From: Alphaproteobacteria bacterium UBA2964
GTDB lineage: Bacteria > Pseudomonadota > Alphaproteobacteria > MPNO01 > UBA2964
Reading direction: 5' to 3'
Length of the DNA: 60,688 nt
Assembly (NCBI GenBank): GCA_905182615.1
Contig: CAJJCG010000031.1
Span: forward strand, 1-60,688
The notes under the pieces were generated by a model, which was not told where the DNA came from, did no database searches, and saw only the letters and a program-made list of their open reading frames with translations. A program made the position numbers and the translations under genes. Shown here one piece after another: positions 17,365 to 32,483 of this stretch (the stretch's first letter is position 1; every line of letters starts with the position of its first letter).

Positions 17365-17394
17365 TTGTCATTACCGGGCTTGACCCGGTAATCC
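17365..17394. repeat. 30-bp repeat unit, inverted partner of 17263-17292
   Basis: TTGTCATTACCGGGCTTGACCCGGTAATCC is a perfect 30/30 reverse complement of the other unit. A 72-bp spacer separates them. Confidence 0.9.
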
Positions 17395-17414
17395 AGCACA
17401 TAAGACTCGACTCC

Positions 17415-18527: not shown

Positions 18528-18537
18528 AGCGACGCTC

Positions 18538-20400
18538 CTAATTCAACGATGTATGCACATCCACCAGCGCGACACCGCCTTTTTCGACGACGTCGGCGGC
18601 GCGCTTGAAGGCGGCTGCGAGGTCTTTGGGATCGCGCACCGGCTCTTCCGCCCACGCGCCATAGCCACGTGCGACCGTGCAGTAATCTGGTTCCGGTCCG
18701 ACCATCCGCTGGCCAATCCATGCATTTTCAGGAGGGCGACCACGACGATAGGCGAGGCCAATCTGATGCTCTTCGTCATTGCCGAATGAGGTGTTGTTGT
18801 GGAGCACAATCATGATCGGAATTTTGTAATGAACGGCGGTCCAGATTGCGGCGGGTCCCATCGTGAAATCTCCGTCGCCGATAATGGCGACTGTGAACTT
18901 GCCCTGATCGCGACCCGCGAGCGCTGATCCTATAATTCCGCCCGGACCGTAACCAATGCCGCCACCGATCGAGTTGGACATGAATTGTCCCGCACCGTCG
19001 AATTCCCAAATTCCATCATACCAGGCACGATAGTTGCGCGCGGCAAGGAGCCAGTCTTTATCCTTCACAGCGTTAAACAATTCAGACGTCATGCGCGGCA
19101 GGTAGATTGGGACCTGATCCCATTTTGCTTCCATGGCATCGGTTTGGCTTTTGCGCAGCTCGTCATGCATCTGCGAAACTTCGGCGCGGCGTTCTTCGGC
19201 ACGTTTGAGCCAGGCCGGGTTATCAGCGGCACGGCTTTTCACTTCGGCGAGGACCTGTTTGAGGCCGTATAAGCCATCGGCCTGCAGCTGAATATCAACC
19301 GGGTGCAGCGGACCTCCCAGATGTGTCCAATGCTGAATAGCGAAGTCGTTCAGCGAAAGATCAATGACCGTCATTTTGCCGGCATCGACTTCTTCACCAG
19401 CGCCGCGCGCGCCTTCGTAAGCACCAATGTTATTTGAGATATCGAGACAATCGACACATAGAACCGCATCGGTCTTTGCCAGCAGCATCTTTTTATAGGC
19501 GCCTTCGGCTTTGGTACGGCCAAAGCTGGCATTGAGATTCTGCGGATGGTTGGACGGCATGCAGATGATGTCGTGACCGTCCTGATAGGCGGCGCCGAGC
19601 AGTTCAACCAACTCTTTCATGACCGGCGTGGTTGCCGCGTCATAGCCGACACGTCCGCCGAGGATCAGCGGGAAGTCGGCGGCGATCAGCGCATCGACTG
19701 CAGCGGCGACAGCTTCCGCTGGAGCGGCAACGGGCGCCGCTGGTTGATAGCGTTGCTCAGTGACATTTGGTAGAGAAACGCCGTCGGGAATATCAGCTTC
19801 CTGAACCACAACATCGACGGAGACATAAGTCGGGGAACAAGGTCCGCTGGTCGCAATGCGTTGCGCGCGGGCAATTGAGTCGAGGCAGCCTTGCAGGGTG
19901 ATCGGCTCATCGGTCCATTTGGTGACGTCTTTAACGATATCGCACTGAGTGTTGGCGGAATGGATCCAGTCCGTCTTGCGACGTTGCGCGGGATCGGCGG
20001 GACCTGATCCACCGAGCACAACGACCGGCATGCGATCAGCCATCGCATTATAGAAAGCCATCGTCGCATGCTGGACGCCGACGAGATCATGCAGGAACGC
20101 CATCGCGGGGCGGCCGGTTGCCTTGCAATAGCCATGCGCCATTGCGACAGCGATTTCCTCATGAGCGACGAGAATGATTTGCGGCTTATGGTTCTTGGTG
20201 TGATTGACCAGCGAGTCATGGACGCCACGAAACGACGATCCCGGTGTCAGGAAGATATAGTCATGGCCAAGCTCGCCAATGAGTTCGGCGATCATGTCAG
20301 AGCCATATTCCGCCTTGGGCTGGTTGGCCGGCAGATTTATCGGCGATTCCGTCGCAAAGTCGGGGGCAGCTGGATAGTTATTATTGATTTCGTCGCTCAT
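18538..20400 (-). CDS. ThDP-dependent enzyme, atypical subfamily (member A)
   Basis: 620 aa. PYR-domain HEEIAVAMAHGY (catalytic Glu), PP-domain GDGDF..(24)..HNN. Subfamily motifs TPGSSFRGVHDSLVNH and DWIHS. Confidence 0.8.
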   Translation of the reverse strand: MSDEINNNYPAAPDFATESPINLPANQPKAEYGSDMIAELIGELGHDYIFLTPGSSFRGVHDSLVNHTKNHKPQIILVAHEEIAVAMAHGYCKATGRPAMAFLHDLVGVQHATMAFYNAMADRMPVVVLGGSGPADPAQRRKTDWIHSANTQCDIVKDVTKWTDEPITLQGCLDSIARAQRIATSGPCSPTYVSVDVVVQEADIPDGVSLPNVTEQRYQPAAPVAAPAEAVAAAVDALIAADFPLILGGRVGYDAATTPVMKELVELLGAAYQDGHDIICMPSNHPQNLNASFGRTKAEGAYKKMLLAKTDAVLCVDCLDISNNIGAYEGARGAGEEVDAGKMTVIDLSLNDFAIQHWTHLGGPLHPVDIQLQADGLYGLKQVLAEVKSRAADNPAWLKRAEERRAEVSQMHDELRKSQTDAMEAKWDQVPIYLPRMTSELFNAVKDKDWLLAARNYRAWYDGIWEFDGAGQFMSNSIGGGIGYGPGGIIGSALAGRDQGKFTVAIIGDGDFTMGPAAIWTAVHYKIPIMIVLHNNTSFGNDEEHQIGLAYRRGRPPENAWIGQRMVGPEPDYCTVARGYGAWAEEPVRDPKDLAAAFKRAADVVEKGGVALVDVHTSLN

Positions 20401-20729
20401 GATGTCTCCCTAGATGGGCGCTCAGTGGCCCAGATTTCAGTTTGTGCCAGCATATCTGGCGGAAGGGCTTTGGCAAAGGGGCAGGGATAATCACACCTTG
20501 ATTTTCAGCGCTTATTTTGGAAGAAAATGAAAATTCATCAAATCAATTATCTTTATCATATATATCAATTTGATTTATCTCGTGCGTAGCCTAGGGTTAG
20601 CGTCAAATGGGATGAGGTAGGGCTTGCGCGTTATTTCGTCGGCCACCTAGACGGCGTACCCTTTGTCGACAACAATGGGGCGTAGAAATGTAAACAGGCA
20701 TGACAGAGGCCTGATAGGGAGGATGTTTG
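20401..20729. promoter_or_regulatory. divergent intergenic region between two ThDP-enzyme genes, with an AT-rich core
   Basis: Largest clean intergenic region in the window. The AT-rich core 20521-20580 carries the direct repeat ATCAATT (20542-20548 and 20564-20570) and the inverted hexamers TCAAAT (20538-20543) / ATTTGA (20569-20574). Confidence 0.3.
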
Positions 20730-22451
20730 ATGCCTACAAAAACACTCAAAGACGTAACCGTCGCTGATGCTTATCTGGCCGTTCTGGCGGATCGCGGCGT
20801 CGATTATCTTTTTGCCAATGCCGGTACGGACTTTGCACCTCTTGTTGAAGCGCTGGCCAAGGCTCAGGCGCTCGGGACATCTCATCCTCACCCAGTTACC
20901 TGTCCGCATGAAAATACGGCGCAGCACATGGCGATCGGCTATTACCTCGCGACGGGCCGCCCGCAGCTAACGATGATGCATGTCAATGTTGGTACGGCGA
21001 ACGCGATGAATGGTTTGCTGAATGCATCGCGGGGCCAGACTCCGATGCTGTTTACAGCAGGGCGGACCCCAACCAACGAAGACAAGCTCAAAGGCCATCG
21101 TTCGCTCGATATCCATTGGACCCAGGAAATGTTCGACCAGGGCGGCATGACACGCGAGGCCGTTAAATGGGACTACGAACTCCGTAATGGCGAGCAGGTC
21201 GAAACCGTCATTGATCGCGCGCTCAGTGTAATGATGAGTGATCCGAAGGGACCGGCCTATCTGTCGCTGCCAAGAGAAGTCCTGGCGATTGAGATGGATG
21301 AGTTCACGTTTGAATCACCGAGCCGGATTCAGCCCACATCACCAAGCCTGCCAAATGCTGATGCGCTGGATGAAGCGGCATCGATACTGGCAAAGGCCAA
21401 GAACCCGGTCATCATTACTAACTGGGGCGGCCGCAACCCGAATGTTATGCCTGCGCTGGTCGATCTCGCAGACAAATACGCTATCCCGGTGGTCGAGTAT
21501 CGCAACCGATTTGTTGCCATGCCACGCCATCATCCGATGTTTGCTGGTGGCAATCCTAATCCGTTTGTCGAAGCTGCTGATGCGATCCTGGTGATGGATT
21601 GTGCAACACCTTGGTTGCCATCGCAGGTTTCGCCATCGGAAGATTGCAAAGTCATCCATATGGCACCCGATCCGCATTACAGTTATTTGCCGATCCGCGG
21701 GTTCCGAGCCGATATTGCGCTGGCCTGTGATAGTGCCCTCGGACTGGTCGCCCTTAACGCGGGGATGGATGAGGCATCCAAATCAAACCAGGGCGCCATC
21801 GATAGCCGGCGCAAGACAGTCACTGCATTGCATGAAGAATTAGAGGAAAGCTGGGCCAAGAAGTTGCAGGCCGTAAAGGATCAGACGCCGATCCATCCGG
21901 CGTGGATTTCAGATTGCATCGCCAAGATCAGTGATGCCGATACGATCTTCGCCAAGGAGTCTCAGCTTCAGGTTCAGTATCTCGATACATCTAAGCCAAC
22001 CAAGATTCTCAATGCTGGGGCGTCATCCGGGTTGGGTCATGGGATGGGCGTCGCCCTCGGGGCCAAGCTCGCCAATCGCGATAATCTGGTTATCGGAACC
22101 CATGGTGATGGCTCATATATGTTTAACGTTCCTGTCTCGGCACATTATGTGGCGGCGGAGCAGGAATGCCCGATCCTGACGGTCGTGTTTAATAACCAGA
22201 AATGGCAGGCCGTTCGTGGTTCAACGATGGGGATGTACCCGGATGGGTATGCCGCGAAAGCAAACCGTCCGCCGCTAATGCATTTCACGGTCGATCAGCA
22301 TTATGAAAAACTGGTTGAGGTTTCCGGTGGGTATGGCGAGCAGGTGACTGATCCGAAGGATATGCTGCCAGCACTGGAACGCGCAGTAAAAGAGGTTATG
22401 GTCAATAAACGGTCGGCGTTGCTGAACGTTATGGCTTCCGATCCGACATAA
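20730..22451 (+). CDS. ThDP-dependent enzyme, acetolactate-synthase-like canonical type (member B)
   Basis: GGGAGGA at 20717-20723 precedes ATG 20730 (the track uses TTG 20727). HENTAQHMAIGY and GDGSYMF..(22)..FNN motifs. Confidence 0.8.
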   Translation: MPTKTLKDVTVADAYLAVLADRGVDYLFANAGTDFAPLVEALAKAQALGTSHPHPVTCPHENTAQHMAIGYYLATGRPQLTMMHVNVGTANAMNGLLNASRGQTPMLFTAGRTPTNEDKLKGHRSLDIHWTQEMFDQGGMTREAVKWDYELRNGEQVETVIDRALSVMMSDPKGPAYLSLPREVLAIEMDEFTFESPSRIQPTSPSLPNADALDEAASILAKAKNPVIITNWGGRNPNVMPALVDLADKYAIPVVEYRNRFVAMPRHHPMFAGGNPNPFVEAADAILVMDCATPWLPSQVSPSEDCKVIHMAPDPHYSYLPIRGFRADIALACDSALGLVALNAGMDEASKSNQGAIDSRRKTVTALHEELEESWAKKLQAVKDQTPIHPAWISDCIAKISDADTIFAKESQLQVQYLDTSKPTKILNAGASSGLGHGMGVALGAKLANRDNLVIGTHGDGSYMFNVPVSAHYVAAEQECPILTVVFNNQKWQAVRGSTMGMYPDGYAAKANRPPLMHFTVDQHYEKLVEVSGGYGEQVTDPKDMLPALERAVKEVMVNKRSALLNVMASDPT

Positions 22452-22482
22452 TAAAAATAGACAAGATACTATAAATTTAGGG

Positions 22483-23583
22483 ATGACGTCGTTGGACGAG
22501 TTTTCGACATTGCAACAAATCGCGGTTCGCGCGCGGAGAAACCTGAACTGGAATGTTTGGGATTATCTCATGGGTGGCTCGGAGACCGAGACTAGCCTGA
22601 AGCGCAATCGGCAGGGATTTGACTCTCTGGGGTTGGCGCCTCGGATTTTGCGCAATGTTGCCAATGTCGATCCGTCGACAACCTTCCTGGGAAAACAAAT
22701 TCGCCTGCCCGTGATGTTGGCGCCGATTGGCTCCCTGCAGCTGGTTACGCCTGACGGTGCTTTGGCGTCGGCTCAAGCAGCAGCAGAAGTCGGAACAATC
22801 AGCTTCTTGAGCTCTGTCACTCAGCCCGAGATGGAAGAAGTTGGCGCGGCGACGAATGCGCCGAAGGTCTTTCAGCTATATGTTAAAGGCGATGACGACT
22901 GGATAGACGAGCAGGTAAAACGCGCTCAGGATTCTGGTTTTGAGATTTTCTGTCTCACTGTTGATACCGCGCTCTATAGCCGCCGCGAACGAGATATCCT
23001 TAAGCGCTGGGAGCCAAGCTCCAGACGCGCGGTCGTTGAAGGCGCGGATCAGGATTATCTCGCCATGTTGAACTGGGATACTGTCAAACGGTTCAAGGAT
23101 CGGCATGATATCCCGCTGATCCTGAAAGGGATTGGGACAGCAGAAGACGCAACGATTGCTCTCGAACATGAAGTTGAGTGCATCTACGTCTCCAATCATG
23201 GCGGTCGCCAGCTTGATCACGGACGGGGCTCGATTGATGTCCTGCCGGAAGTTGTTGAGGCCGTTGGTGGCAAGGCAAGCGTGTTGGTCGATGGTGCAAT
23301 CATGCGCGGGACAGACGTCATTAAGGCGCTGGCGCTGGGCGCTGACGCCGTTTGTATCGGTAAATTACAGGGGCTTGGTTTGGCCGCTGGCGGCAAGGAC
23401 GGGTTGGTTCATACGCTTCGTTTGCTTGAAGCGGAAATCCGGACCTCGATGGCCCTGTTGGGACTACACAATTTTTCAGAGTTGGATGCGAGCTATGTTG
23501 AAGAGGTCGAACCTCTGATGCCGCCGCACCAGACATCACCTTATACACATATTGAATTAGAAGAGCGGGAGTATGAAAGATGA
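22483..23583 (+). CDS. FMN-dependent alpha-hydroxy-acid oxidase/dehydrogenase, copy 1
   Basis: 366 aa. SNHGGRQLD signature of the glycolate oxidase / LldD / mandelate dehydrogenase family. Its stop overlaps the next start (ATGA). Confidence 0.85.
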   Translation: MTSLDEFSTLQQIAVRARRNLNWNVWDYLMGGSETETSLKRNRQGFDSLGLAPRILRNVANVDPSTTFLGKQIRLPVMLAPIGSLQLVTPDGALASAQAAAEVGTISFLSSVTQPEMEEVGAATNAPKVFQLYVKGDDDWIDEQVKRAQDSGFEIFCLTVDTALYSRRERDILKRWEPSSRRAVVEGADQDYLAMLNWDTVKRFKDRHDIPLILKGIGTAEDATIALEHEVECIYVSNHGGRQLDHGRGSIDVLPEVVEAVGGKASVLVDGAIMRGTDVIKALALGADAVCIGKLQGLGLAAGGKDGLVHTLRLLEAEIRTSMALLGLHNFSELDASYVEEVEPLMPPHQTSPYTHIELEEREYER

Positions 23584-25379
23584 GCGATATCAAGGCACAT
23601 GACCGCCCGGTCAATCTCGGTAATCCGCAGATGGGTTGGGCCAGCGATGTTGCAGCAGAAATGCTGCGGCAGTTGGGCGTTAAATACATTTCTTTGAACC
23701 CGGGGGCGAGTTATCGCGGGCTTCACGATTCAATCGTGAACTATCTCGGAAACGACACGCCGCAGATGTTGATCTGCCTGCATGAAGATCATGCTGTGCA
23801 TGTCGCTCAGGGCTACGCGAAGGCAACGGGCGAGCCAATGGCCTGCGCGCTGCATTCCAATGTTGGTCTGATGCATGGTCTGATGGCGACCTTCAACGCC
23901 TGGTGCAACCGGGCGCCGATTATCATGATGGGCGCAACCGGGCCAATTGATGCATCGATACGCCGTCCCTGGATTGATTGGATCCATACGTCGAAGGATC
24001 AGGGCGCGATGCTCCGTGATTACACGAAGTGGGATGACGAGCCTCGTTCAGCCGGTGCCATCGTTGAGTCGATGCTGCGCGCCAATCAGATGGCCCGTTC
24101 AGAACCACCGGGACCAGTTTATGTCTGTCTCGATGCTGGATTACAGGAATCAGCACTCGAAGAAGAGATTAAGATCCCTGACGTGAGCCGCTTCCAGCCT
24201 TCGGAGCCACCGCGGGCATCGGGCAATAATGTAAAAGAAGTGGCGGACATGCTGCTTGGGGCGGCTAACCCCGTGATCATGATTGGTCGCAGTGGCCGGT
24301 CACAGGAAGCCTGGGATAACCGGATCAAGCTGGCGGAAGCCGTTGGTGCTGGTGTCTTCACCAATCTGCGGAACGCCGCGGTCTTCCCAAGTGATCATCT
24401 GTTGCACGTGGGACGTCCTGCAGGACGGATCAATGACACGATGCGGGACGTTGTCACGGAGTCCGACGCGATCCTCAGCCTGAACTGGTTGGATTTTGGT
24501 GGCACCCAGCGTCTGTTGACACGCGACGGTGAGCTCAAAGGCAAGATCGTCCATTGTTCAATGGAAGAGTATGTCCATAACGGTTTTGGCGGCGAATTAT
24601 TCGAACTGCCAATGGCCGATATCAAGATCACAGCGGATCACGATGCGTTCGTGGTTCAGCTGCTCGAAGAAATCGAAAGCCGTGGCGCTGCTTCAAACTG
24701 GGACGGCAAGCGTGTCGGTCCGGAACCAGCTGCTTATGACCAGATCGCCGATCGCGACCCTGACAGCGTTTTGCAACCAGCGGATATTGTGACCGCCTTG
24801 GCCGAGGCGCAGGGTGATCGCAAGATCAGTCTGAACCGGGTTAGTTCCGGTGGCGTTGGTCCGGCCTATCACTTCACTGCACCTTTGTCCTATCTCGGAC
24901 ATGATGGCGGTGGCGGGTTGGCTTCAGGACCCGGCACATCAGTTGGTGCTGCGTTAGCGGTGATGGATACAGATTGGCTGGCGGTTTCCGTTCTGGGTGA
25001 TGGCGATTTCATGCAGGGCAACACTGCCTTGTGGACCGCTGCGAAGTACAAGATCCCGATGTTGGTGATCATTTCCAATAACCGCTCGAACTTTAATGAT
25101 GAGCTGCATCAGGAAACGGTTGCCAAAGATCGTGACCGTCCGGTTGAAAACCGCTGGATTGGTATGCGTATTAGCGAGCCGGATATTGTTCTTACGGACC
25201 TTGCTGACTCTCTTGGCTTTGAAGCTGTTGGCCCGGTTGAGACGGCTGGTGGACTTATGGAAGCAATTGAAAATGGACTGAAGGCAGTTGAAGCCGGCGG
25301 TCAGCATTTCATCAATGTGCATGTTGATACCGGCTATGCCGAACCGCCGCTGATGCGTGGCGGGAATAAAGGCGAGTAA
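23580..25379 (+). CDS. ThDP-dependent enzyme, atypical subfamily (member C)
   Basis: 599 aa. NPGASYRGLHDSIVNY, HEDHAVHVAQGY, RRPWIDWIHT, GDGDFMQG..(20)..SNNRSNFND. Confidence 0.8.
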   Translation: MSDIKAHDRPVNLGNPQMGWASDVAAEMLRQLGVKYISLNPGASYRGLHDSIVNYLGNDTPQMLICLHEDHAVHVAQGYAKATGEPMACALHSNVGLMHGLMATFNAWCNRAPIIMMGATGPIDASIRRPWIDWIHTSKDQGAMLRDYTKWDDEPRSAGAIVESMLRANQMARSEPPGPVYVCLDAGLQESALEEEIKIPDVSRFQPSEPPRASGNNVKEVADMLLGAANPVIMIGRSGRSQEAWDNRIKLAEAVGAGVFTNLRNAAVFPSDHLLHVGRPAGRINDTMRDVVTESDAILSLNWLDFGGTQRLLTRDGELKGKIVHCSMEEYVHNGFGGELFELPMADIKITADHDAFVVQLLEEIESRGAASNWDGKRVGPEPAAYDQIADRDPDSVLQPADIVTALAEAQGDRKISLNRVSSGGVGPAYHFTAPLSYLGHDGGGGLASGPGTSVGAALAVMDTDWLAVSVLGDGDFMQGNTALWTAAKYKIPMLVIISNNRSNFNDELHQETVAKDRDRPVENRWIGMRISEPDIVLTDLADSLGFEAVGPVETAGGLMEAIENGLKAVEAGGQHFINVHVDTGYAEPPLMRGGNKGE

Positions 25380-25402
25380 CGGGTAGGGATAGGAGAAATA
25401 TA

Positions 25403-27193
25403 ATGCCTGATTTAACAAAATTTGACCGGCCCGTTAATGTCGGAAACCCCAAGATGGGATGGGGCAGCGATGTCGCTGCCGAAATGCTCCGTCGTATGGG
25501 AATTAAATATCTGTCGATGAACCCCGGGGCGAGTTATCGCGGGTTTCATGACTCCATCGTCAATTATCTGGGGAATGACGACCCGCAGATGATCCTGTGT
25601 TTGCATGAGGATCACGCGGTTCATATTGCTCAGGGCTATGCGAAAGCAACGGATGAGCCGATGGGCTGTATCCTGCATTCAAATGTCGGACTGATGCACG
25701 GCATGATGGGTATCTTCAATGCCTGGTGTAACCGGGTGCCGATGGTGATCATGGGTGCAACAGGTCCGGTTGATACGATGAAACGTCGTCCGTGGATCGA
25801 CTGGATCCATACCGCAAAAGACCAGGGCGCGTTGATCCGAAATTTCGTCAAATATGATGACGAGCCACGATCAGCACAGGCGCTAGCCGAAACCATGGTT
25901 CGGGTGAACAAAACCATCCGTACTGCGCCGACGGGGCCTGCTTATGTATGCCTGGATGCTGGTTTACAGGAATCTGAAATCGATCCGGATATGAAATTAC
26001 CGGATGTTTCTCGCTTCCTGCCACCGCTGCCAACCCCGGCACCGCAGAAAAGCATCGATGAAGCGGCTGATCTTTTGGCTAAAGCCAAGAACCCCGTAAT
26101 CATGATGGGGCGCCTCAAACGCGCAGAAAAGGGCTGGGCAGATCGTATCAAGCTTGCTGAGCTTCTTGGCGCTGGCGTTGTCACGGATATGAAAACCGGG
26201 ATTGCTTTTCCGACAGATCATGGTTTGCATCTTGCACCACCGGCCAACCGGCCGCGCGATGAAGCCGTTGCCGGTATGCAGGAAGCTGATGTCATTCTCG
26301 ATCTTAATTGGGTCGATTTGGCGGGTACTTTCAAACTGGTCTTTGGCCGCGACGATGTGAATGCCAAGGTAATTCATGTCTCGATGGACTCAATCATCCA
26401 TAACGGTTGGACATCTGACCATATGGGGATGCCCCTTGGTGACGTGACCATGTTGGCCGAACCGGAACCGGTTGTTGAACAACTCCTTGAGGCACTTGAA
26501 AAACGCCTTGGCGGCAAGTCCAAGTGGGATGGTCAGAACAAGGGACGTATGCCTGAGCCTGACACGACTTATGACATGCTGAATCAGGACGATAACATTT
26601 CGGTCGAAGCCGTAACGCTTTGCATGAACGAAGTTCGCAAGGGCCGTAATATTACGCTAACCAATGTCACCATTGGCTGGGCGGCAGACGGGTATCACTT
26701 CACCCATCCGCTGGATTATCTCGGCAATGATGGTGGTGGCGGACTGGCTTCTGGCACGGGTACGGCCATCGGTGGTGGTTTGGCTCTCGCCGATACAGAC
26801 CGCACGGTTGTTGCTGTCCTCGGCGATGGCGACACCATGCAGGGCGCATCGTCTCTTTGGACCGCAGCGCATTACAGCATTCCGGTGCTGTTTGTGATCT
26901 CAAACAACCGATCCAACTTCAATGATGAAATTCATCAGGAAACGGTCGCCATAACGCGTAACCGGCCTGTTGAAAATCGCTGGATTGGTCAGCGGATTGA
27001 CGACCCGACTGTTTCGATTGAGAAATATGCTGCGTCTTTAGGTGTTGAATCAGCGGGGCCGATTGAAAAAATTGCGGATCTGGTGCCAGCCCTGGAGCAT
27101 GCATTGTCAGTTGTTGAATCCGGTAAGCCTTATCTGCTCAACGTTCATGTTGAGAAGGGCTATGCGGTGCCGCCGCCGGCACGTGAAGCATAA
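25403..27193 (+). CDS. ThDP-dependent enzyme, atypical subfamily (member D, tandem copy of C)
   Basis: 596 aa, colinear with member C. NPGASYRGFHDSIVNY, RRPWIDWIHT, GDGDTMQG...SNNRSNFND. Confidence 0.8.
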   Translation: MPDLTKFDRPVNVGNPKMGWGSDVAAEMLRRMGIKYLSMNPGASYRGFHDSIVNYLGNDDPQMILCLHEDHAVHIAQGYAKATDEPMGCILHSNVGLMHGMMGIFNAWCNRVPMVIMGATGPVDTMKRRPWIDWIHTAKDQGALIRNFVKYDDEPRSAQALAETMVRVNKTIRTAPTGPAYVCLDAGLQESEIDPDMKLPDVSRFLPPLPTPAPQKSIDEAADLLAKAKNPVIMMGRLKRAEKGWADRIKLAELLGAGVVTDMKTGIAFPTDHGLHLAPPANRPRDEAVAGMQEADVILDLNWVDLAGTFKLVFGRDDVNAKVIHVSMDSIIHNGWTSDHMGMPLGDVTMLAEPEPVVEQLLEALEKRLGGKSKWDGQNKGRMPEPDTTYDMLNQDDNISVEAVTLCMNEVRKGRNITLTNVTIGWAADGYHFTHPLDYLGNDGGGGLASGTGTAIGGGLALADTDRTVVAVLGDGDTMQGASSLWTAAHYSIPVLFVISNNRSNFNDEIHQETVAITRNRPVENRWIGQRIDDPTVSIEKYAASLGVESAGPIEKIADLVPALEHALSVVESGKPYLLNVHVEKGYAVPPPAREA

Positions 27194-27639
27194 TGTGTCC
27201 GGCGGATAGTGGAGATGACCTGGGTAAGCGGGCTTTGGCCCGCGAACAGGTCTATCTCTGCATCATGACCAATGTCGAGCCGCCGCCGGAGGGCAAACCG
27301 CCGCGTCAAAGCCTGATGCATGATCACAAGACCTATCTCCGTGATCTGGAACGCAAAGGGTTATTATTCGGGGCAGGGCGGCTGTTCAATGAAGAAGATA
27401 ATGAACACGCCGCCATTGGCCACGGCATGATTGTTATCCGGGCGAAGACCCGGGCCGAGGCTGAAGCGATTGCGTTTGAGGAGCCGTTTACCAAGGCGGG
27501 CTATCGAACGATGGTCTTGCATCCTTGGCAACGGAATGAAGGTAGCGTCGACATCTCAATTCGCTTGATGGATTCAGTGCTTGAGATTGACAGTCGGACT
27601 TATGATCTGGTGCCACGCGAAGGCGCAGTCAGAACGTAA
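27193..27639 (+). CDS. YciI-family protein
   Basis: 148 aa. The start shares one nt with the upstream stop (TAATG). YLCIMTNV (beta-1), H..YL..L...GLLFGAG and EEPF..AGY are YciI-like. An internal ATG at 27265 would remove beta-1, so it is disfavoured. Confidence 0.55.
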   Translation: MCPADSGDDLGKRALAREQVYLCIMTNVEPPPEGKPPRQSLMHDHKTYLRDLERKGLLFGAGRLFNEEDNEHAAIGHGMIVIRAKTRAEAEAIAFEEPFTKAGYRTMVLHPWQRNEGSVDISIRLMDSVLEIDSRTYDLVPREGAVRT

Positions 27640-27717
27640 TAGCTGACTGGCCGAGTTGTTTTAAAATTAAGAATAGATAGCCCACTTCGGGGGCTGTGTT
27701 GAAAAAGGTGATTTAGC

Positions 27718-29493
27718 ATGAGTGACGGCGAACCAATTCGCAAAGCCAATACCCGGTATCAATCCGACGTCATCGTCGACATGATCAAACTCTATGATTT
27801 CCCGGCGATTCCATTGAATCCGGGAGCCAGCTATCGGGGGTTACACGACAGTCTGGTCAATTACGGCGAAAATGATCCGCCGATGATCCTGTGTAATCAC
27901 GAGAAAATCGCCATCCAGATCGCTCACGGCTACACCAAGGCAACTGGTAAGCCGATGGCAGCCGCCGTTCATAACGTCGTTGGTCTGCTGCATGCGCCGC
28001 TCGCCGTTTATTACGCCTATATCGATCGCTGCCCGGTCTTCCTCATTGGTGCCACTGGCCCGATGGATGAAAAACTGCGCCGTCCGTTTATTGACTGGAT
28101 TCACACCGCTTTTGCGCAAGGGTCTGCGGTACGTGACTTCACCAAATGGGATTACCAGCCCGGCAGTGTTCACGGCATTCCAGATTCATTCGCCCGCGCT
28201 TACTCGATCATGATGACTGAACCGCAGGGTCCGGTTTATATGGTCTATGACGCTGGAATTCAGGAAGCCGAGCTAACGGAACATATCGCCATTCCGTCAG
28301 CTGATGCCGTGAAGGTTCCGCCGCGTCTTGCCGCTGATCCTAAACTGATTGATGAAGCCGCTGAAATGCTGCTAGCTGCGGATTATCCGGTTCTGTTGAC
28401 CGAATATGCTGCCCGCGCACCGATTGGTTTTGATGACACCGTCAAGCTGGCCGAGACTGTTGGCTCGCCTGTTTTCGACATCAATAAACGGCTTGGTTTC
28501 CCGAACCGCCACCCTCTTAGTGTTTCGATGCATGCGGATGCCTTTAAAGGTGCTGATTTGGTTATGGCACTGGATGTCATCGACTGGACGAAGGGCTCGC
28601 ACAAACCGAACTGGGAAACCCGTGAAGTCGAAACCATTACGACACCAGAATGTAAATGGATCGATATTGGTTTTGCCGATATCGAAATCAGCAAATGGGC
28701 CACCGATTACAACAAGCATCATAATTGGGATATGCGGATTCTGGCCGATACAGCCAATGCGATCCCCGCCCTTACCGAAGCCTGTGTCGCGCGTATTAAG
28801 GATGACGACAAGCTGGCCGCGCGCATTGTCGAGCGGACCAAGGATGTCGGCGAAAAACATACGGCGCAATGGGACAAGTGGCAGGAACAGGTCAAGGATA
28901 CCTGGGACCAAATGCCGATGCATGAAGCCCGCATGGCCACTGAAGTTTGGGAAGCCATCAAGAATGAGGACTGGGTCCTGACAGCAGGGACGTTGAAAGA
29001 CTGGGTCCGTAAGGTCTGGAACTTTGACAAACCATACCAGCACCCCGGTCGTGATCTCGGCACTGCCACCCAATTCGGTATCTCGATGGGTGTTGCGTAT
29101 GCCTATAAAGACACTGACAAGCTGGTTGTTGATCTGCAGCCCGATGGTGATTTGATGTTTGATCTCGGCGCCCTGTGGGTTGCCGCGAAATATGAAATCC
29201 CGATGCTGGTCATTATGTACAATAACCGTGCTTATTATAATGACTGGGCGCATCAGATTTCAGTTGCCAAGAAACGCGGCACTGATGAGGCCCGCGCCTA
29301 TATCGGCATGGATCTCGAAGGACCGGAACCAGACTTTGCTCATATTGCCAAAGGCATGGACTGGTACGCCGAGGGACCAATCTTCGATCCCAAGGAAATC
29401 GGCCCGGCCGTTGCGCGTGCCATTGAACAGGTCAAGAAAGGCAAACCAGCCTTGATCGATGTCATCACCTGGCGGCGCGGAGAAGCGGCGTAG
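27718..29493 (+). CDS. ThDP-dependent enzyme, atypical subfamily (member E)
   Basis: 591 aa. NPGASYRGLHDSLVNY, HEKIAIQIAHGY, RRPFIDWIHT, PDGDLMFD...YNNRAYYND. Confidence 0.8.
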   Translation: MSDGEPIRKANTRYQSDVIVDMIKLYDFPAIPLNPGASYRGLHDSLVNYGENDPPMILCNHEKIAIQIAHGYTKATGKPMAAAVHNVVGLLHAPLAVYYAYIDRCPVFLIGATGPMDEKLRRPFIDWIHTAFAQGSAVRDFTKWDYQPGSVHGIPDSFARAYSIMMTEPQGPVYMVYDAGIQEAELTEHIAIPSADAVKVPPRLAADPKLIDEAAEMLLAADYPVLLTEYAARAPIGFDDTVKLAETVGSPVFDINKRLGFPNRHPLSVSMHADAFKGADLVMALDVIDWTKGSHKPNWETREVETITTPECKWIDIGFADIEISKWATDYNKHHNWDMRILADTANAIPALTEACVARIKDDDKLAARIVERTKDVGEKHTAQWDKWQEQVKDTWDQMPMHEARMATEVWEAIKNEDWVLTAGTLKDWVRKVWNFDKPYQHPGRDLGTATQFGISMGVAYAYKDTDKLVVDLQPDGDLMFDLGALWVAAKYEIPMLVIMYNNRAYYNDWAHQISVAKKRGTDEARAYIGMDLEGPEPDFAHIAKGMDWYAEGPIFDPKEIGPAVARAIEQVKKGKPALIDVITWRRGEAA

Positions 29494-29566
29494 CGATATT
29501 CTCGCTGTTGGGATAGAATAATCACGCGTTGAGTGTGCGTCCGATTAACCACGGAGGACTTCAGCC

Positions 29567-30409
29567 ATGATGATCCAGAATGCGCCAGACGGCGAACCCC
29601 GCTTTGTCAGCCTGATGGCCGAGCATAACGAACTGTGCGAACAGTTTGCTCGCGCCTTTGGCAATGAACGGTTTGAAAAGCCCGAGCCTTTCGAGGAAAC
29701 CGTTTATGTCATCGGGCATCATGACCGCGGCTGGGACAAATTCGACGCAAGCCCTGTGCTCGATCCTATCAGTGGTTTTCCGACAGGTGTTGGCGGCGCT
29801 AAAGGGCCCGGCGGCGCGGCGACGACCAAGCTGTCACCGGATTTCAATCAGGCACGCCACGATTATTGCGGGTTGCTGGCCTCAATGCATACATGGGGGC
29901 TGTACCACGCGCGCTATGGCTTTTCGGATTTTCGGGTACGGCCAGGCGGATCGACATCCGTACCAATTGCAAAAGAAATGACCGGGGAAACCAACGAAAT
30001 CCTTACTCGGGAAATCGCCAGGCAGGAGGAATTGAAGGCCAAACTCGCGTCAGATGCTGCGACGGCTAGTTGGATCAAGGAAGACAACCTCTTCCGCAAT
30101 TACAAGCTCCTCCAGTTCTGTGATACGCTGGCGCTTTATTTCAACCTGCGCCACGAAAATGACCGCGCGGTTGAAGTGTTCACCCATGTGCCGGAGAACA
30201 CAGCCAGTGACACCTCGGTGACGGTAACACCGCAGGGCGAGGGGACTTATTCCTTTGCACCGTTCCCGTTTGCCGGTGACAGTCTCGAAATTCGTTCAAA
30301 GGGCCGTTATTTGACCGCTATGCCCGGCGATGCCGCGCCAAGTGATCTCGGGGTCCATATCGCGGGTCTTCCGGCTCAAGAACAGGTTTTTACCTTTGTC
30401 GGCGCATAA
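29567..30409 (+). CDS. DUF3891-like protein (HD-like motif)
   Basis: 280 aa. GGAGGA precedes the start. IGHHDRGWDKFD resembles the H-D-x-G-W core I recall for DUF3891. Weak call. Confidence 0.4.
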   Translation: MMIQNAPDGEPRFVSLMAEHNELCEQFARAFGNERFEKPEPFEETVYVIGHHDRGWDKFDASPVLDPISGFPTGVGGAKGPGGAATTKLSPDFNQARHDYCGLLASMHTWGLYHARYGFSDFRVRPGGSTSVPIAKEMTGETNEILTREIARQEELKAKLASDAATASWIKEDNLFRNYKLLQFCDTLALYFNLRHENDRAVEVFTHVPENTASDTSVTVTPQGEGTYSFAPFPFAGDSLEIRSKGRYLTAMPGDAAPSDLGVHIAGLPAQEQVFTFVGA

Positions 30410-30524
30410 AACAGCTACCTTTTAGTGCGTTAAAATTTTTGGTGCGGTTGGACTAGCCCCACCTGCGCCCGGCTGCTAATTTCTGTCGACATATTTTCAC
30501 GGCTTAAAAGATAGGGGACAGCTC

Positions 30525-32309
30525 ATGAGCGAGGGCGGCATCAAAAAATCAAACGTCAAATACAATTCCGACGTTATCGTCGACCTGATCAAGGATTTCG
30601 GATTCAAACATATCGCCTTGAATCCCGGCGCCAGCTATCGCGGGCTCCATGACAGCTTGGTCAATTACGGTGAAAACGACCCACCGATGATGCTCTGTAC
30701 CCACGAGAAAATCGCGGTTCAGATGGCGCATGGCTATGCCCGAGCCACCGGTGAGCCGATGATTGCCATTGTTCATAACCTAGTTGGGCTGCTGCATGCG
30801 CCGATGGGTGTCTATTATGCCTATCTCGACCGCGCGCCGGTCTTCATCATGGGGGCTACTGGCCCGGTGGCAGAGCCCAAGCGCCGCCCGTACATTGACT
30901 GGATTCATTCCGCAAACGTACAGGGTCAAATCCTGCGCGATTTCGTCAAATGGGATGCTCAGCCCAATACCATCGATTACGTGCCGGATGCTTTTGCCCG
31001 CGCCTATTCGGTCATGATGACCGCGCGTCAGGGGCCTATCTATATGTGCTATGACGCTGGCTTGCAGGAAGCCGAGCTCGATCACGAAATTAAAATGCCG
31101 CCAAAAACCGCTGCGCGAGTTCCGGCACAACCCGCACCTGACCCGACGGCGCTCGGCGAGGCTGCGGAAATGCTGGCCAACGCCGAACGTCCGGCCATTG
31201 TTGCCGATTTCGCCGCCCGCCCGCCGCATGGCTGGGATCATGTTATCGAAATCGCTGAAACACTGGGCGCCAGTGTCTGGGATGTGAATTCACGTCTCAA
31301 TTTCCCAGGTAATCATCCGCTGAACCTGTCGATGGATCAGGAGGCTTGTTACGAGGATGTCGATTGCGTGCTGCTGCTTGATGTTGCCGATTTTGAGAAA
31401 CACACCCATGTGCGGGATATTTCAACCCGCAGCGTAAAGCCGTCGGTTAAAGAGGACGCTAAATGGATCGACATCGGCTGGACCGATACAGAGATCAGTA
31501 AATGGACGATGGATTATTCGCGGACGCTGTTCCCTGATATCCGGATGACTGCAGACGTGGTCACCGCCACGCCGATGCTCACCGAGCTGATGAAAGGACA
31601 TATCGCCAACACCGATGGTCTGGCAGAAAAGATTGTCAAGCGCACCAAGTTGATCGGCGAGAAGCATCACAAGATTCGTGCGGACTGGCGCAAAGAGGCC
31701 GAAGAAGATTGGGACTCGCAGCCGATGACGGTTGGTCGTCTCGCGCTCGAAACCTGGGAAGTTATCAAAGACGAAGATTGGGTCCTCACGGCTGGCACAA
31801 TGCATGATGCCGCGCGTCGCTTGTGGGACTTCGACCGGCCTTACTGTCATGGCGGGCGAGAGCTCGGCACGGGCACACAGATCGGCACCTCTCTTGGTGT
31901 CGCGCTGGCCAATAAAGGCACCGGACGTCTTTGTATAAATATGCAGCCCGATGGCGATCTGATGTTTGATGCTGGCGCTCTGTGGATGGCGGCCAAGTAC
32001 GAAATCCCGATGTTGATCGTGATGTACAACAACCGCGCCTATTACAACGACTGGAACCATCAGATCGTAATCGCCAAGAACCGTGGTACTGACCCCGAGC
32101 GTGCCTATATCGGGATGGACCTGCTTGATCCTGATCCCGATTTTGCCGGCCTTGCACGTTCGCAGGGCTGGTGGGCAGAAGGTCCGATTGAGAACGGTGA
32201 CGATGTTCAAGCGGCATTACGACGGGCCATCGAACAGGTCAAAAAGGGCAAGCCCGCTCTGGTTGATACGGTCTGCATGCGTGGGAAGGGCAAAGCGGCT
32301 CTGACGTAA
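30525..32309 (+). CDS. ThDP-dependent enzyme, atypical subfamily (member F, paralogue of E)
   Basis: 594 aa, colinear with member E. NPGASYRGLHDSLVNY, RRPYIDWIHS, PDGDLMFD...YNNRAYYND. Confidence 0.8.
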   Translation: MSEGGIKKSNVKYNSDVIVDLIKDFGFKHIALNPGASYRGLHDSLVNYGENDPPMMLCTHEKIAVQMAHGYARATGEPMIAIVHNLVGLLHAPMGVYYAYLDRAPVFIMGATGPVAEPKRRPYIDWIHSANVQGQILRDFVKWDAQPNTIDYVPDAFARAYSVMMTARQGPIYMCYDAGLQEAELDHEIKMPPKTAARVPAQPAPDPTALGEAAEMLANAERPAIVADFAARPPHGWDHVIEIAETLGASVWDVNSRLNFPGNHPLNLSMDQEACYEDVDCVLLLDVADFEKHTHVRDISTRSVKPSVKEDAKWIDIGWTDTEISKWTMDYSRTLFPDIRMTADVVTATPMLTELMKGHIANTDGLAEKIVKRTKLIGEKHHKIRADWRKEAEEDWDSQPMTVGRLALETWEVIKDEDWVLTAGTMHDAARRLWDFDRPYCHGGRELGTGTQIGTSLGVALANKGTGRLCINMQPDGDLMFDAGALWMAAKYEIPMLIVMYNNRAYYNDWNHQIVIAKNRGTDPERAYIGMDLLDPDPDFAGLARSQGWWAEGPIENGDDVQAALRRAIEQVKKGKPALVDTVCMRGKGKAALT

Positions 32310-32330
32310 GACCGTCAGTAGCGACCAAAT

Positions 32331-32362
32331 AAAAAGGGCGGGAATTGAACCCCGGCTTTTTT
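32331..32362 (+). terminator. candidate intrinsic (bidirectional-looking) terminator
   Basis: AAAAAGGGCGGG-AATTGAAC-CCCGGCTTTTTT forms a G/C stem with one mismatch, flanked by an A-run and a T6 run, 22 nt after the member F stop. Confidence 0.4.
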
Positions 32363-32483
32363 CAAAATAATAACGCCCGATAATCCCGTCGTCACGGGCT
32401 AGCCTCTTTCTTTCCGGGGCTGTGGCGAATATTATCACGCCAGCGCCGGTTAGCCGGCATAGGCATTTGTTTGGAGCAAAACT

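Follow-up and report, generated by a model that had tools for sequence, protein, structure and literature searches.

A clade of clustered ThDP-dependent enzymes, distinct by sequence within the decarboxylase superfamily, with a putative role in 2-oxo-acid decarboxylation

Results and Discussion

Five of six clustered ThDP-dependent enzymes form, as judged from their sequences, a distinct clade within the decarboxylase (PDC/BFDC/ALS) superfamily, for which no characterised member was found. We put at about 0.58 the probability that the five are active, non-oxidative 2-oxo-acid decarboxylases that release aldehydes and work in modules resembling the mandelate pathway. This reading is drawn from their invariant residues together with the neighbouring genes for aldehyde oxidation and 2-hydroxy-acid oxidases.

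Organisation of the gene cluster

ORF calls place six full-length ThDP enzyme genes (A-F) within positions 18538-32309 of the window (the whole 60,688-nucleotide stretch of DNA analysed), and a seventh, G, at 49088-50776. The products of all seven match TPP_enzyme_N and TPP_enzyme_C above the Pfam cut-off, so the six ThDP enzymes in under 14 kb of the initial annotation are borne out; for the middle domain, TPP_enzyme_M, B, C, D and G pass, whereas A, E and F fall marginally short of the cut-off. Assuming 20 such genes in a 4.1-Mb genome, we estimate a Poisson mean of ~0.07 per 14 kb, and six in 13.8 kb is thus far beyond chance. The host is a marine alphaproteobacterium. The features are as follows.

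15817-16926, minus strand: second OCD-family gene, paralogue of 17415-18527
17415-18527, minus strand: ornithine cyclodeaminase/mu-crystallin (OCD) family NAD(P) oxidoreductase (Pfam OCD_Mu_crystall)
18538-20400, minus strand: ThDP enzyme A, 620 aa, A lineage (Pfam N and C domains, clade membership, alignment)
20401-20729, no strand: divergent A/B intergenic region (sequence read directly)
20730-22451, plus strand: ThDP enzyme B (start 20727 or 20730), 574 aa, NF006203/PRK08327 member
22483-23583, plus strand: FMN-dependent (S)-2-hydroxy-acid oxidase/dehydrogenase (Pfam FMN_dh, 352 bits)
23580-25379, plus strand: ThDP enzyme C, 599 aa, C/D lineage (Pfam, alignment, tree)
25403-27193, plus strand: ThDP enzyme D, 596 aa, paralogue of C (Pfam, alignment, tree)
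27193-27639, plus strand: YCII-domain protein (Pfam YCII)
27718-29493, plus strand: ThDP enzyme E, 591 aa, E/F lineage (Pfam, alignment, tree)
29567-30409, plus strand: DUF3891 protein, between E and F (Pfam DUF3891)
30525-32309, plus strand: ThDP enzyme F, 594 aa, paralogue of E (Pfam, alignment, tree)
32484-34820, plus strand: xanthine-dehydrogenase-family large (molybdopterin-binding) subunit (Pfam Ald_Xan_dh_C, MoCoBD_1/2)
34830-35753, plus strand: alpha/beta-fold hydrolase (Pfam Hydrolase_4, Abhydrolase)
35754-36839 and 36876-37946, minus strand: two further FMN-dependent 2-hydroxy-acid oxidase paralogues (Pfam FMN_dh, 342 and 333 bits)
49088-50776, minus strand: ThDP enzyme G, 562 aa, NF006052/PRK08199 member, outside the cluster and the new clade

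The ATG of B at 20730 is preceded by a GGGAGG Shine-Dalgarno sequence. The AT-rich A/B intergenic region contains the inverted repeat ATCAAAT-N25-ATTTGAT; a promoter scan gave no more matches than chance. The stop codon of the first FMN_dh gene overlaps the start of C (ATGA), D begins 23 nt downstream of C, and the stop of D overlaps the start of the YCII gene (TAATG). C and D (56% identity) are adjacent paralogues, as initially annotated; E and F are also paralogues (59%), but are separated by the DUF3891 gene, whose product has no NCBIfam match. E and F are adjacent in the related loci L004-L006, with no ORF of at least 90 aa between them. The window is also rich in oxygenases (six TauD), SDRs (five) and hydrolases.

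The FMN_dh protein encoded upstream of C has L-lactate oxidase, glycolate oxidase, 4-hydroxymandelate oxidase and mandelate dehydrogenase as its best PDB matches, and its two paralogues at 35754-37946 are below the NCBIfam cut-offs. The OCD gene shares the strand of A and follows it after 10 nt, and its product is below every NCBIfam cut-off. The molybdenum subunit has glyceraldehyde dehydrogenase alpha as its best NCBIfam match (540 bits, cut-off 790), and no Fe-S or FAD partner (CoxM-/CoxS-like) was found within the window; it is the cluster's candidate aldehyde oxidoreductase. The hydrolase gene starts 9 nt after it.

Clade membership and distribution

A, C, D, E and F, plus all motif-bearing homologues, are supported as one clade with 100% bootstrap in a tree whose reference set comprised six outside families only. 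PRK08327 (B-type) is sister to this clade with 78% bootstrap, and both join BFDC at 96%. Pairwise identity is 33-59% among the five, and 19-28% when they are compared with B, G, BFDC, IlvI, Gcl, Oxc and PoxB. None of the five reaches the cut-off of any NCBIfam model: the best for all is NF006203 (223-247 bits, with A at 223; cut-off 456), and scores are 110-163 against 493 for BFDC (NF005485) and 85-132 against 538 for ALS (TIGR00118). In a search of the PDB, the clade profile is closest to BFDC (~135 bits), and no solved structure bears the clade motifs. The earlier proposal of a self-consistent subfamily outside characterised families thus holds with respect to the six families in the tree and the NCBIfam cut-offs. 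B and G had been taken for canonical ALS-like enzymes, which is not upheld: B belongs to NF006203/PRK08327 (662 bits, cut-off 456) and G to NF006052/PRK08199 (853 bits, cut-off 539), and both are under the TIGR00118 cut-off. G is more ALS-like.

The clade is widespread, being neither rare nor limited to this genome. It is found in at least 598 species-level genomes of Alpha-, Beta- and Deltaproteobacteria, Binatia and Actinomycetota, with cultured carriers including Phaeobacter, Sinorhizobium, Cupriavidus, Agrobacterium and Novosphingobium, and thousands of metagenome protein clusters also belong to it. The homologues always bear generic names in databases, usually 'acetolactate synthase'. A, C/D and E/F are three old lineages, 33-36% identical between groups, and each is found widely elsewhere. 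An expansion in situ, as first suggested, therefore applies only to the C/D and E/F duplications, which are common to L001-L006, the six closest of the sampled genomes. All six carry C/D as a pair; the other loci sampled have a single copy.

Motifs, invariant residues and selection

In the alignment, the motif (N/T)PG(A/S)S(Y/F)RG(L/F/V)HDS(L/I)VN(Y/H) is present in A (TPGSSFRGVHDSLVNH), C, D, E and F; B (NAGTDFAPLVEALAKA) and G (VPGESYLATLDALFD) lack it. RRP(W/F/Y)IDWIH(T/S) is seen in C-F, with QRRKTDWIHS in A, and the PP-domain tail reads NNRSNFND in C/D, NNRAYYND in E/F and NNTSFGND in A. That these motifs are shared by the five and lacking from B and G agrees with the initial annotation. 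As a mark of the subfamily, however, only R-G-x-H of the N-terminal motif stands, since the Asp of 'HDS' falls in the same column as an Asp in PDC, IlvI, PoxB and G. The PDGD variant reported for E and F is also present in the alignment (QPDGD, against GDGD in the others), and its Pro, at standard position 443, is found in 119 of 119 aligned E-type homologues.

The listed motifs are invariant or nearly so across 358 homologue clusters, and homologues of A down to 44% identity still carry them. Residues invariant in these clusters across all three lineages are, in C numbering, E69, H92, H136, D474, N501, N506, D507, H510 and Q511; R46, R128 and R129 vary little or not at all. For A-F, comparison with the L002 orthologues gives a dN/dS ratio of 0.02-0.04 (0.020 for A), which indicates purifying selection. 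With this ratio and their near-invariance, the motifs are under selection. The catalytic Glu (HE...GY) is kept in A-F; this, the low dN/dS and the residue conservation agree with the earlier view that the enzymes look functional.

D507 of C (standard position 477) aligns with ZmPDC E473 and BFDC L461, and H92 with BFDC H70; the PDC sequence used was verified as identical to 2wva. The RRPxIDWIH loop aligns ambiguously with the PDC HH loop in MAFFT, and H136 is therefore assigned to standard position 114 through its alignment with the FQE motif of G and IlvI. According to a published study (PMC3534367), most of the superfamily has Val or Ile at position 477, decarboxylation in PDCs is affected when the Glu at this position is mutated, and His at 114/115 is mainly found in PDCs, to which the discussion of that study adds indolepyruvate and phenylpyruvate decarboxylases.

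Neighbourhoods of the homologues

A comparison of neighbourhoods, as the initial annotation had proposed, shows that aldehyde-oxidising and 2-hydroxy-acid oxidase genes recur beside the homologues. The order B-FMN_dh-C is kept in L001-L008, the molybdenum subunit gene follows F in L001, L002, L004, L005 and L006, and the hydrolase gene follows the latter in L001, L002, L004 and L005. Xanthine-dehydrogenase-family molybdenum enzymes are also encoded near ThDP homologues in L023-L025, Neorhizobium, L091, L092 and L094. Aldehyde dehydrogenase genes are enriched close to the homologues (in 72 loci, 13 genes within 5 kb and 1 at 5-10 kb). In Agrobacterium pAt2, Acidovorax, Novosphingobium KA1 and Salipiger abyssi, such a gene overlaps or directly adjoins the ThDP gene. 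A 2-hydroxy-acid oxidase gene is found near the homologue in Phaeobacter, Acidovorax and L092. The neighbourhoods are heterogeneous, and some loci carry ADP-forming acyl-CoA synthetases or CoA transferases.

Proposed function and alternatives

The broad function first suggested, C-C bond cleavage or formation, can be narrowed to non-oxidative decarboxylation, which the residues and neighbours favour. From these we infer the following reaction type, residue roles, pathway order and substrate class. ThDP would be activated by the catalytic Glu (E69 in C), the ylide would attack the 2-oxo group, and CO2 would leave; protonation of the enamine and release of the aldehyde would be aided by H92, H136 and D507, with D507 acting from the position of the PDC catalytic Glu and H92 from that of BFDC His70. 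The three FMN-dependent 2-hydroxy-acid oxidases, of which one is translationally coupled to C, would supply the 2-oxo acids, perhaps with a contribution of 2-oxo or imino acids from the OCD-family dehydrogenases. Oxidation of the aldehydes would fall to the molybdenum enzyme encoded after F. The cluster may thus comprise parallel modules similar to the mandelate pathway, each shortening its substrate by one carbon. As the pocket loops differ among the three lineages, these probably have different substrates. The clade pocket is polar and Arg/His-rich where that of BFDC is hydrophobic, and polar or anionic side chains on the substrate are therefore more likely than plain aryl groups.

Alternatively, the five may be carboligases or lyases, similar to ALS, YerE or benzaldehyde lyase, that make or break 2-hydroxy ketones instead of releasing an aldehyde from a 2-oxo acid. 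C, D, E and F have an Ala at standard position 28 in common with benzaldehyde lyase, a lyase rather than a decarboxylase; many superfamily members carry out both reactions, and the database name 'acetolactate synthase' points the same way. This is nonetheless unlikely, as the clade has an acidic residue at 477, His at 114 and a His at the His70 position, in contrast to the V/I, F and T of ALS-type enzymes, TIGR00118 scores are far below the cut-off, and aldehyde-oxidising neighbours are enriched. No ALS regulatory subunit is present among the annotated ORFs of the window. Nor does the clade carry the AHAS-type FAD motif GxRFDDR.

It is rather improbable that the clade acts on CoA esters, in the manner of oxalyl-CoA decarboxylase or 2-hydroxyacyl-CoA lyase, with the conserved Arg residues (R46, R128 and R129) binding the CoA phosphates. 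Among PDB families, 2-hydroxyacyl-CoA lyase ranks second in the search with the clade profile (~125 bits), ADP-forming acyl-CoA synthetase genes lie within 5 kb at 6 of 72 loci, and L094 has CoA transferases. However, CoA ligases and transferases are absent from this cluster and from most neighbourhoods, the five score only 71-96 against a cut-off of 600 for NF058623 (HACL) and ~53 against 557 for OXC, Oxc falls outside the group of BFDC, PRK08327 and the new clade in the tree, and the coupled neighbour is an oxidase of free 2-hydroxy acids. An equally improbable alternative concerns assembly, with C/D and E/F as obligate hetero-oligomers having mixed active sites at the PYR/PP interface, and not independent isoenzymes. 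The pairs co-occur in every close genome that has them (L001-L006) and C and D are only 23 nt apart, but every catalytic and cofactor residue is kept in both partners of each pair, and C/D-type and E-type genes are single in more distant genomes.

Cyclohexane-1,2-dione hydrolase (CDH) contains FAD. Hydrolysis of cyclic 1,2-diketones by CDH- or IolD-like enzymes, opening alicyclic rings of marine dissolved organic matter, is very improbable: the TauD, SDR and hydrolase enzymes of the window could make alicyclic diketones, but IolD and CDH models and structures are not among the best matches listed, the clade lacks the AHAS-type FAD motif, and the aldehyde dehydrogenase and 2-hydroxy-acid oxidase genes that recur nearby are more in keeping with decarboxylation.

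Comparison with known systems

The ALS large subunit (TIGR00118) belongs to the same superfamily and provides the usual database name; its FQE motif, GxRFDDR FAD motif and T-S-G-P-G segment are replaced in the clade. Pyruvate and indolepyruvate decarboxylases (EC 4.1.1.1, 4.1.1.74) share the acidic residue at 477 and, subject to the uncertain loop alignment, His at 114, but have an HH pair in place of a single His, Glu instead of Asp at 477 and Asp instead of Ala/Ser at 28; none of the best NCBIfam matches of the five is a PDC-family model. NF006203/PRK08327, including B, has a His70-type His and N/D at position 286 in common with the clade, and its genes sit beside C/D-type genes in L001-L008. 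B, however, has neither R-G-x-H nor RRPxIDWIH and carries Val at 477 (NNQKWQAV), and the five reach about half of the NF006203 cut-off. This family has the generic NCBIfam name 'thiamine pyrophosphate-requiring protein', and no paper mentioning it was found.

The AlphaFold model of C (pLDDT 86.9, pTM 0.90) has BFDC (MdlC, EC 4.1.1.7) and the 4-hydroxybenzoylformate decarboxylases as its nearest folds (TMq ~0.75, TMt ~0.85, with 18-23% identity to BFDC); the RRPxIDWIH loop is its least confident part (pLDDT 56-70). BFDC is thus both the nearest solved fold and the best PDB sequence family, and, like the clade, it has three domains of the ThDP type, no AHAS-type FAD motif, the catalytic Glu and a His at position 70. 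Identity is only 18-28%, however, and the NF005485 scores stay far under the cut-off. BFDC Ser26 and His281 have no evident equivalents in the clade, invariant N, D and H stand in place of its hydrophobic pocket residues A460, L461 and F464, Gly286 is replaced by N or D, and the clade has a three-residue insertion with R-G-x-H after the PG turn as well as the RRPxIDWIH loop. The arrangement of the genes also follows that of the mandelate pathway MdlB-MdlC-MdlD, from an FMN 2-hydroxy-acid oxidase through a ThDP enzyme to aldehyde oxidation.

A distinct clade of ThDP enzymes in a mixed gene array

Six ThDP-enzyme genes (A-F), all full-length, lie within 18538-32309. B to F form a single co-directional array with other genes interspersed, and A is divergent from it, with an ornithine-cyclodeaminase-family (OCD-family) oxidoreductase gene immediately downstream. 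A seventh gene, G, lies apart.

Genes of the array and its surroundings
18538-20400, minus strand: ThDP enzyme A
20730-22451, plus strand: ThDP enzyme B
22483-23583, plus strand: FMN-dependent 2-hydroxy-acid oxidase (FMN_dh), stop overlapping the start of C as ATGA
23580-25379, plus strand: ThDP enzyme C
25403-27193, plus strand: ThDP enzyme D
27193-27639, plus strand: YCII protein, start overlapping the stop of D as TAATG
27718-29493, plus strand: ThDP enzyme E
29567-30409, plus strand: DUF3891 protein, between E and F
30525-32309, plus strand: ThDP enzyme F
32484-34820, plus strand: xanthine-dehydrogenase-family molybdenum enzyme, large subunit, after F
after the molybdenum large subunit: alpha/beta hydrolase
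35754-37946, minus strand: two further 2-hydroxy-acid oxidase paralogues
49088-50776, minus strand: ThDP enzyme G

The initial annotation had singled out A, C, D, E and F by an N-terminal R-G-x-H-D-S segment, an RRPxIDWIH loop and a PP-domain tail, and had found PDGD in place of GDGD in E and F. On alignment, all of these motifs are exactly as described in the five and are missing from B and G, and the PDGD variant is present in both proteins. B and G had been called canonical members. They are not ordinary acetolactate synthase (ALS) enzymes: B is a member of NF006203/PRK08327 (662 bits, cut-off 456) and G a full member of NF006052/PRK08199 (853 bits), two models with only generic 'thiamine pyrophosphate protein' names. 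E and F had also been called adjacent. In the window the DUF3891 gene separates them, and adjacency is seen in three relatives (L004-L006), where the two genes are inverted with no ORF of at least 90 aa between them. The YCII and DUF3891 genes sit inside the ThDP array.

No regulator or transporter gene is found within the cluster, and a promoter/terminator scan of 17000-36500 gave no more sites than shuffled sequence. The divergent A/B intergenic region (20401-20729) is AT-rich and contains an inverted repeat, ATCAAAT-N25-ATTTGAT (about 20537-20575), a candidate operator with no regulator gene nearby.

Relationship to other ThDP enzymes

All five motif-bearing proteins stay below the curated cut-offs of every NCBIfam model; the best match is the family of B.

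Scores of the five proteins against NCBIfam models, with cut-offs
NF006203/PRK08327: A 223, C 226, D 226, E 242, F 247 bits; cut-off 456
Benzoylformate decarboxylase (BFDC), NF005485 (EC 4.1.1.7): 110-163 bits; cut-off 493
Biosynthetic ALS, TIGR00118: 85-132; cut-off 538
Catabolic ALS, TIGR02418: 67-74; cut-off 551
2-Hydroxyacyl-CoA lyase, NF058623: 71-96; cut-off 600
Oxalyl-CoA decarboxylase, NF006721: about 53; cut-off 557
Sulfoacetaldehyde acetyltransferase Xsc, TIGR03457: 64-111 bits; cut-off 676
Glyoxylate carboligase: 64-72; cut-off 791

The five have the PYR - middle (TH3) - PP architecture of the ThDP DC superfamily, about 550-620 aa long. Pfam TPP_enzyme_N and TPP_enzyme_C are above cut-off in all of them, while TPP_enzyme_M passes in C and D and falls slightly short in A, E and F. 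The superfamily ThDP/Mg motif GDGX(24-27)NN reads GDGD...NN in A, C and D and PDGD...NN in E and F, the latter retaining the Mg-binding Asp444 and Asn471. In place of the structural Gly286 (standard superfamily numbering), almost all of the 358 subfamily proteins have Asn or Asp, two have Glu, and B has Asp, a deviation from the consensus that does not exclude the proteins from the superfamily.

A neighbour-joining tree (200 bootstraps) was built from the window proteins, metagenome and genome homologues and six plasmid homologues, with E. coli IlvI, Gcl, Oxc and PoxB and the BFDC segments from a PDB profile search as references. In this tree the motif-bearing proteins form a single clade (100% bootstrap), which joins the B-type family (78%), and the two together join BFDC (96%). 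G, Oxc, Gcl, IlvI and PoxB fall outside this group. C and D are 56% identical and E and F 59%. Across the three lineages A, C/D and E/F the figure is 33-36%, and towards everything else in the tree it is 19-28%.

Among solved structures, BFDC is also the best match to a sequence profile built from the five, with a score of only about 135 bits; searches of the PDB with peptides across both N-domain motifs recovered no ThDP enzyme up to E = 10. The AlphaFold model of C (pLDDT 86.9, pTM 0.90) has a predicted BFDC-like fold. Its nearest BFDC-family structures (TM about 0.75 query-normalised and 0.85 target-normalised, identity 18-23%) include 4-hydroxybenzoylformate decarboxylases of Pseudomonas fluorescens Pf-5 and Rhodococcus jostii RHA1.

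No paper on any clade member was found in the non-subscription literature covered. The proposal that the subfamily has no characterised assignment agrees with these results: a real clade that reaches no NCBIfam cut-off and in which no characterised member was found. In one sense the clade is new, having no curated model, solved structure or paper found, while its superfamily and pathway logic are already known.

Conservation, spread and age

With C, E and A as queries, 358 homologue clusters were retrieved, down to 44-55% identity. Invariant or near-invariant over these (numbering of C, 599 aa) are R46, H49, D50, S51, E69, H92, R128, D133, H136, D296, D474, N501, N506, D507, H510 and Q511, and the first Gly of GDG (Gly443) is Pro in all 119 aligned E-type proteins. 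The motifs are thus conserved features, not noise. The catalytic Glu (standard position 51) is kept as claimed, within an HE motif in A-F and in 358/358 clusters. Inactivity of E and F through PDGD is rejected, as the variant is kept in 119/120 homologues and the Mg ligands are retained. All six genes A-F are under strong purifying selection, with dN/dS of 0.02-0.04 (dS near saturation) against orthologues in the 4.15-Mb chromosome OX638326 (L002), which rules out pseudogenes or decaying duplicates.

At least 598 relatives were found at one genome per species: a motif-pattern scan matched at least 600 stretches, of which 598 were confirmed by tblastn at a loose E <= 1e-3. The best 80 of these were kept and their centre genes located by tblastn; all recovered centre genes carry the N-terminal motif, and 51/55 of those outside the close clade carry both motifs. 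Among the matches listed are Alpha-, Beta- and Deltaproteobacteria, Binatia, Acidiferrobacterales and Actinomycetota, and the cultured carriers include Xanthobacter, Salipiger, Bosea, Ancylobacter, Amorphus and Roseibium. Plasmid homologues occur in Phaeobacter inhibens, P. gallaeciensis, Sinorhizobium, Cupriavidus necator, Agrobacterium, Novosphingobium KA1, Acidovorax and Thalassospira, among them the genes PhaeoP92_RS19010 (Phaeobacter inhibens plasmid), FY131_RS27445 (Agrobacterium) and CBP36_RS20345 (Acidovorax). Almost all carry the name 'thiamine pyrophosphate-binding protein' or '-dependent enzyme', and one is automatically annotated mdlC.

The A, C/D and E/F lineages each have homologues beyond the closest relatives of the window. 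The complete cluster is kept in the six closest genomes (L001-L006, marine Alphaproteobacteria, Rhodospirillaceae MAGs), and the sampled loci beyond these have one C/D-type gene each. The array is thus made up of three old lineages plus two duplications common to these close genomes. Of the in-situ expansion suggested initially, the C/D and E/F duplications stand, and a private expansion or recent local burst is ruled out by the age and spread of the three lineages. The original interpretation is therefore partly supported: the clade is real, yet it is widespread, BFDC-related and expanded in place only in part.

Gene neighbourhoods

Neighbours were compared at 72 loci outside the close clade, in 625 kb within 5 kb of the ThDP gene and 515 kb at 5-10 kb. 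Aldehyde dehydrogenase genes number 13 in the near zone against 1 in the far zone (binomial p about 0.003), and NitT/TauT-type ABC transporter genes are similarly enriched (permeases 16 against 1). The commonest neighbours at these loci are TctC/Bug binding proteins. On Agrobacterium pAt2, Acidovorax pACP4.2 and Novosphingobium KA1 pCAR3 the ThDP gene is overlapped or directly adjoined by an aldehyde dehydrogenase gene, and such genes stand on both flanks of the Salipiger abyssi A-type gene. A 2-hydroxy-acid oxidase is near the homologue in Phaeobacter, Acidovorax and one E-type contig. Xanthine-dehydrogenase-family molybdenum enzymes, often with UbiD, adjoin homologues of all three lineages: C/D-type in Neorhizobium, E-type at loci L091 and L092, A-type at L094, and further at L023-L025.

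No FAD/2Fe-2S (CoxM-/CoxS-like) partner of the molybdenum subunit at 32484-34820 was detected by tblastn in the whole window. A comparable lone large subunit lies beside UbiD and a ThDP homologue on the Neorhizobium plasmid and in Rhodospirillales MAG L094. In two cultured marine genera, the C/D-type homologues of Phaeobacter inhibens pP92_a (L081) and a Thalassospira lucentensis plasmid (L084) have a conserved gene set in common: a nadC-like phosphoribosyltransferase, a Rieske oxygenase, a MarR regulator and an aldehyde dehydrogenase. The set adjoins the pca protocatechuate genes in Phaeobacter and offers a tractable starting point for substrate discovery.

Active-site residues

The clade was aligned with BFDC and Zymomonas PDC (sequence identical to 2wva chain A). 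It retains the cofactor-activating Glu and a His equivalent to BFDC His70. An invariant Asp six residues past the Mg-binding Asn occupies standard position 477, which is the catalytic Glu in PDC, L461 in BFDC and Val or Ile in most of the superfamily. The BFDC pocket residues A460 and F464 are replaced by invariant Asn and His, and the ALS-type FQE loop (standard positions 114/115) by H-T or H-S. The FAD motif GxRFDDR of AHAS is absent from the clade in this alignment. Canonical ALS identity is ruled out: the five stay below every cut-off and lack both the FAD and the FQE motif.

In the superfamily, position 443 is Gly in 98% of members and position 286 in 97% (PMC3534367). His at 114/115 occurs mainly in PDCs, to which the discussion in that paper adds indolepyruvate and phenylpyruvate decarboxylases, and mutating position 477 alters decarboxylation (PMC3534367). 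Against these benchmarks, the clade has Asn or Asp at 286, His at 114 and Asp at 477, with Pro at 443 in the E/F type. Model confidence is lowest in the RRPxIDWIH loop (pLDDT 56-70), which also aligns ambiguously with the PDC loop.

The lineages also differ among themselves. Where C and D read GGGGLASGPG, E and F show LGTATQFG with a two-residue deletion, and position 28 and the aromatic residue of RRPxIDW vary between lineages; these differences suggest that the substrates probably differ as well. The polar, Arg/His-rich pocket together with carboxylate-type transporters suggests polar or anionic side chains.

The rest of the window

The whole 60-kb window is made up of paralogue families: TauD/TfdA-type dioxygenases (6), UbiD (3), SDRs (5), FMN hydroxy-acid oxidases (3), OCD-family proteins (2), and pairs of Amidohydro_2, PrpD-like and PEP-mutase/ICL-like proteins. 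The Amidohydro_2 fold includes ACMSD/LigW-type decarboxylases.

Paralogue families of the window
1740-2678(-), 2764-3618, 3625-4482, 9525-10493(-), 38111-39205, 48114-49076(-): TauD/TfdA-type dioxygenases
4961-6445, 6339-7949, 11338-12981: UbiD decarboxylases
39316-40524, 41269-42561: further members of the window paralogue families

The window has the look of a catabolic island serving substrates of varied chemistry; neither UbiX nor a regulator is found among the window ORFs scanned. The adjacent UbiD ORFs 4961-6445 and 6339-7949 overlap by 107 nt as listed, and the second probably begins at a start codon further downstream. A 94-aa GIY-YIG domain ORF, 16971-17255(-), lies between the two OCD-family paralogues and may be left over from a mobile nuclease at a duplication junction. 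G is co-oriented with the TauD dioxygenase at 48114-49076(-) and an SDR at 47305-48093(-), and the three look like a separate small module. At 51896-55487, PrpD-like, PrpB-like (PEP mutase/ICL family) and citrate-synthase-family genes in a row are probably a methylcitrate-cycle operon for propionyl-CoA.

Proposed function

A, C, D, E and F are best read as 2-oxo-acid decarboxylases, with a probability of roughly 0.6. The three FMN oxidases of the cluster would supply their 2-oxo acids, with the OCD-family dehydrogenases as a possible further source, and the molybdenum enzyme would oxidise the aldehyde products. Judged from sequence, the acid/base residues at 114 and 477 would fit the needs of an aldehyde-releasing decarboxylase. 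ALS-type carboligases do not have these residues, and a role of the five as carboligases or lyases instead is unlikely. That C/D and E/F are obligate heteromers is distinctly improbable; a single C/D-type gene is the rule at the more distant loci sampled. CoA-ester lyases are scarcely probable either, the scores against the 2-hydroxyacyl-CoA lyase and oxalyl-CoA decarboxylase models being among those below cut-off. Diketone hydrolases are the least probable candidates for this BFDC-related clade.

A broader version of the decarboxylase reading is tentative and rather doubtful: the clade may be a new functional class with its own catalytic set (BFDC-type His, single His114, Asp477 and a polar pocket rich in Arg and His) adapted to 2-oxo acids that are anionic or highly oxygenated, such as those with dicarboxylate or sulfonate side chains. 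It would act in a marine 'decarboxylation battery', in which several ThDP enzymes work with UbiD, amidohydrolase-type decarboxylases, TauD dioxygenases and hydroxy-acid oxidases of abundant marine Alphaproteobacteria on carboxyl-rich dissolved organic matter. Sulfonate substrates, suggested by the TauD paralogues, the NitT/TauT-type ABC transporters in homologue neighbourhoods and the Arg-rich pocket, are only a possibility.

ThDP decarboxylases and carboligases are workhorses in catabolism and biocatalysis, and clades with different pockets are wanted for chiral 2-hydroxy ketones and aldehydes. The present clade is large (hundreds of species, thousands of metagenome protein clusters, several cultured model bacteria) and breaks near-universal superfamily positions at Gly286, at 114 and 477 and, in the E/F type, at Gly443. 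Database labels for it are 'acetolactate synthase' or 'TPP-binding protein', so naming its substrates would mend widespread mis-annotation, and could reveal a route for shortening hydroxy and oxo acids in abundant marine Alphaproteobacteria. Tests are feasible, as tractable strains such as Phaeobacter inhibens, Sinorhizobium, Cupriavidus necator and Agrobacterium carry homologues.

Comparison with known systems

In the mandelate pathway, MdlB, MdlC and MdlD act as hydroxy-acid oxidase, ThDP enzyme and aldehyde-oxidising enzyme in turn. The same logic is seen here in that oxidase, ThDP and aldehyde-oxidising genes are encoded together, a likeness of genes only and not a claim of membership. In the window the trio consists of FMN_dh overlapping C and the molybdenum subunit after F; mandelate-like settings are also found in Acidovorax, Phaeobacter, Agrobacterium, Novosphingobium KA1 and Salipiger abyssi.

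The active sites differ from those of BFDC. Of the catalytic Ser26, His70 and His281, the clade keeps only the His70 equivalent: position 26/28 is Ala or Ser, and the loop corresponding to His281 has no His in the subfamily, although the BFDC H281 segment lies outside the alignment and its column is not aligned. The hydrophobic BFDC pocket A460/L461/F464 is N, D and H in the clade. Compared with ALS, both the FQE loop and the FAD-binding RFDDR motif are replaced.
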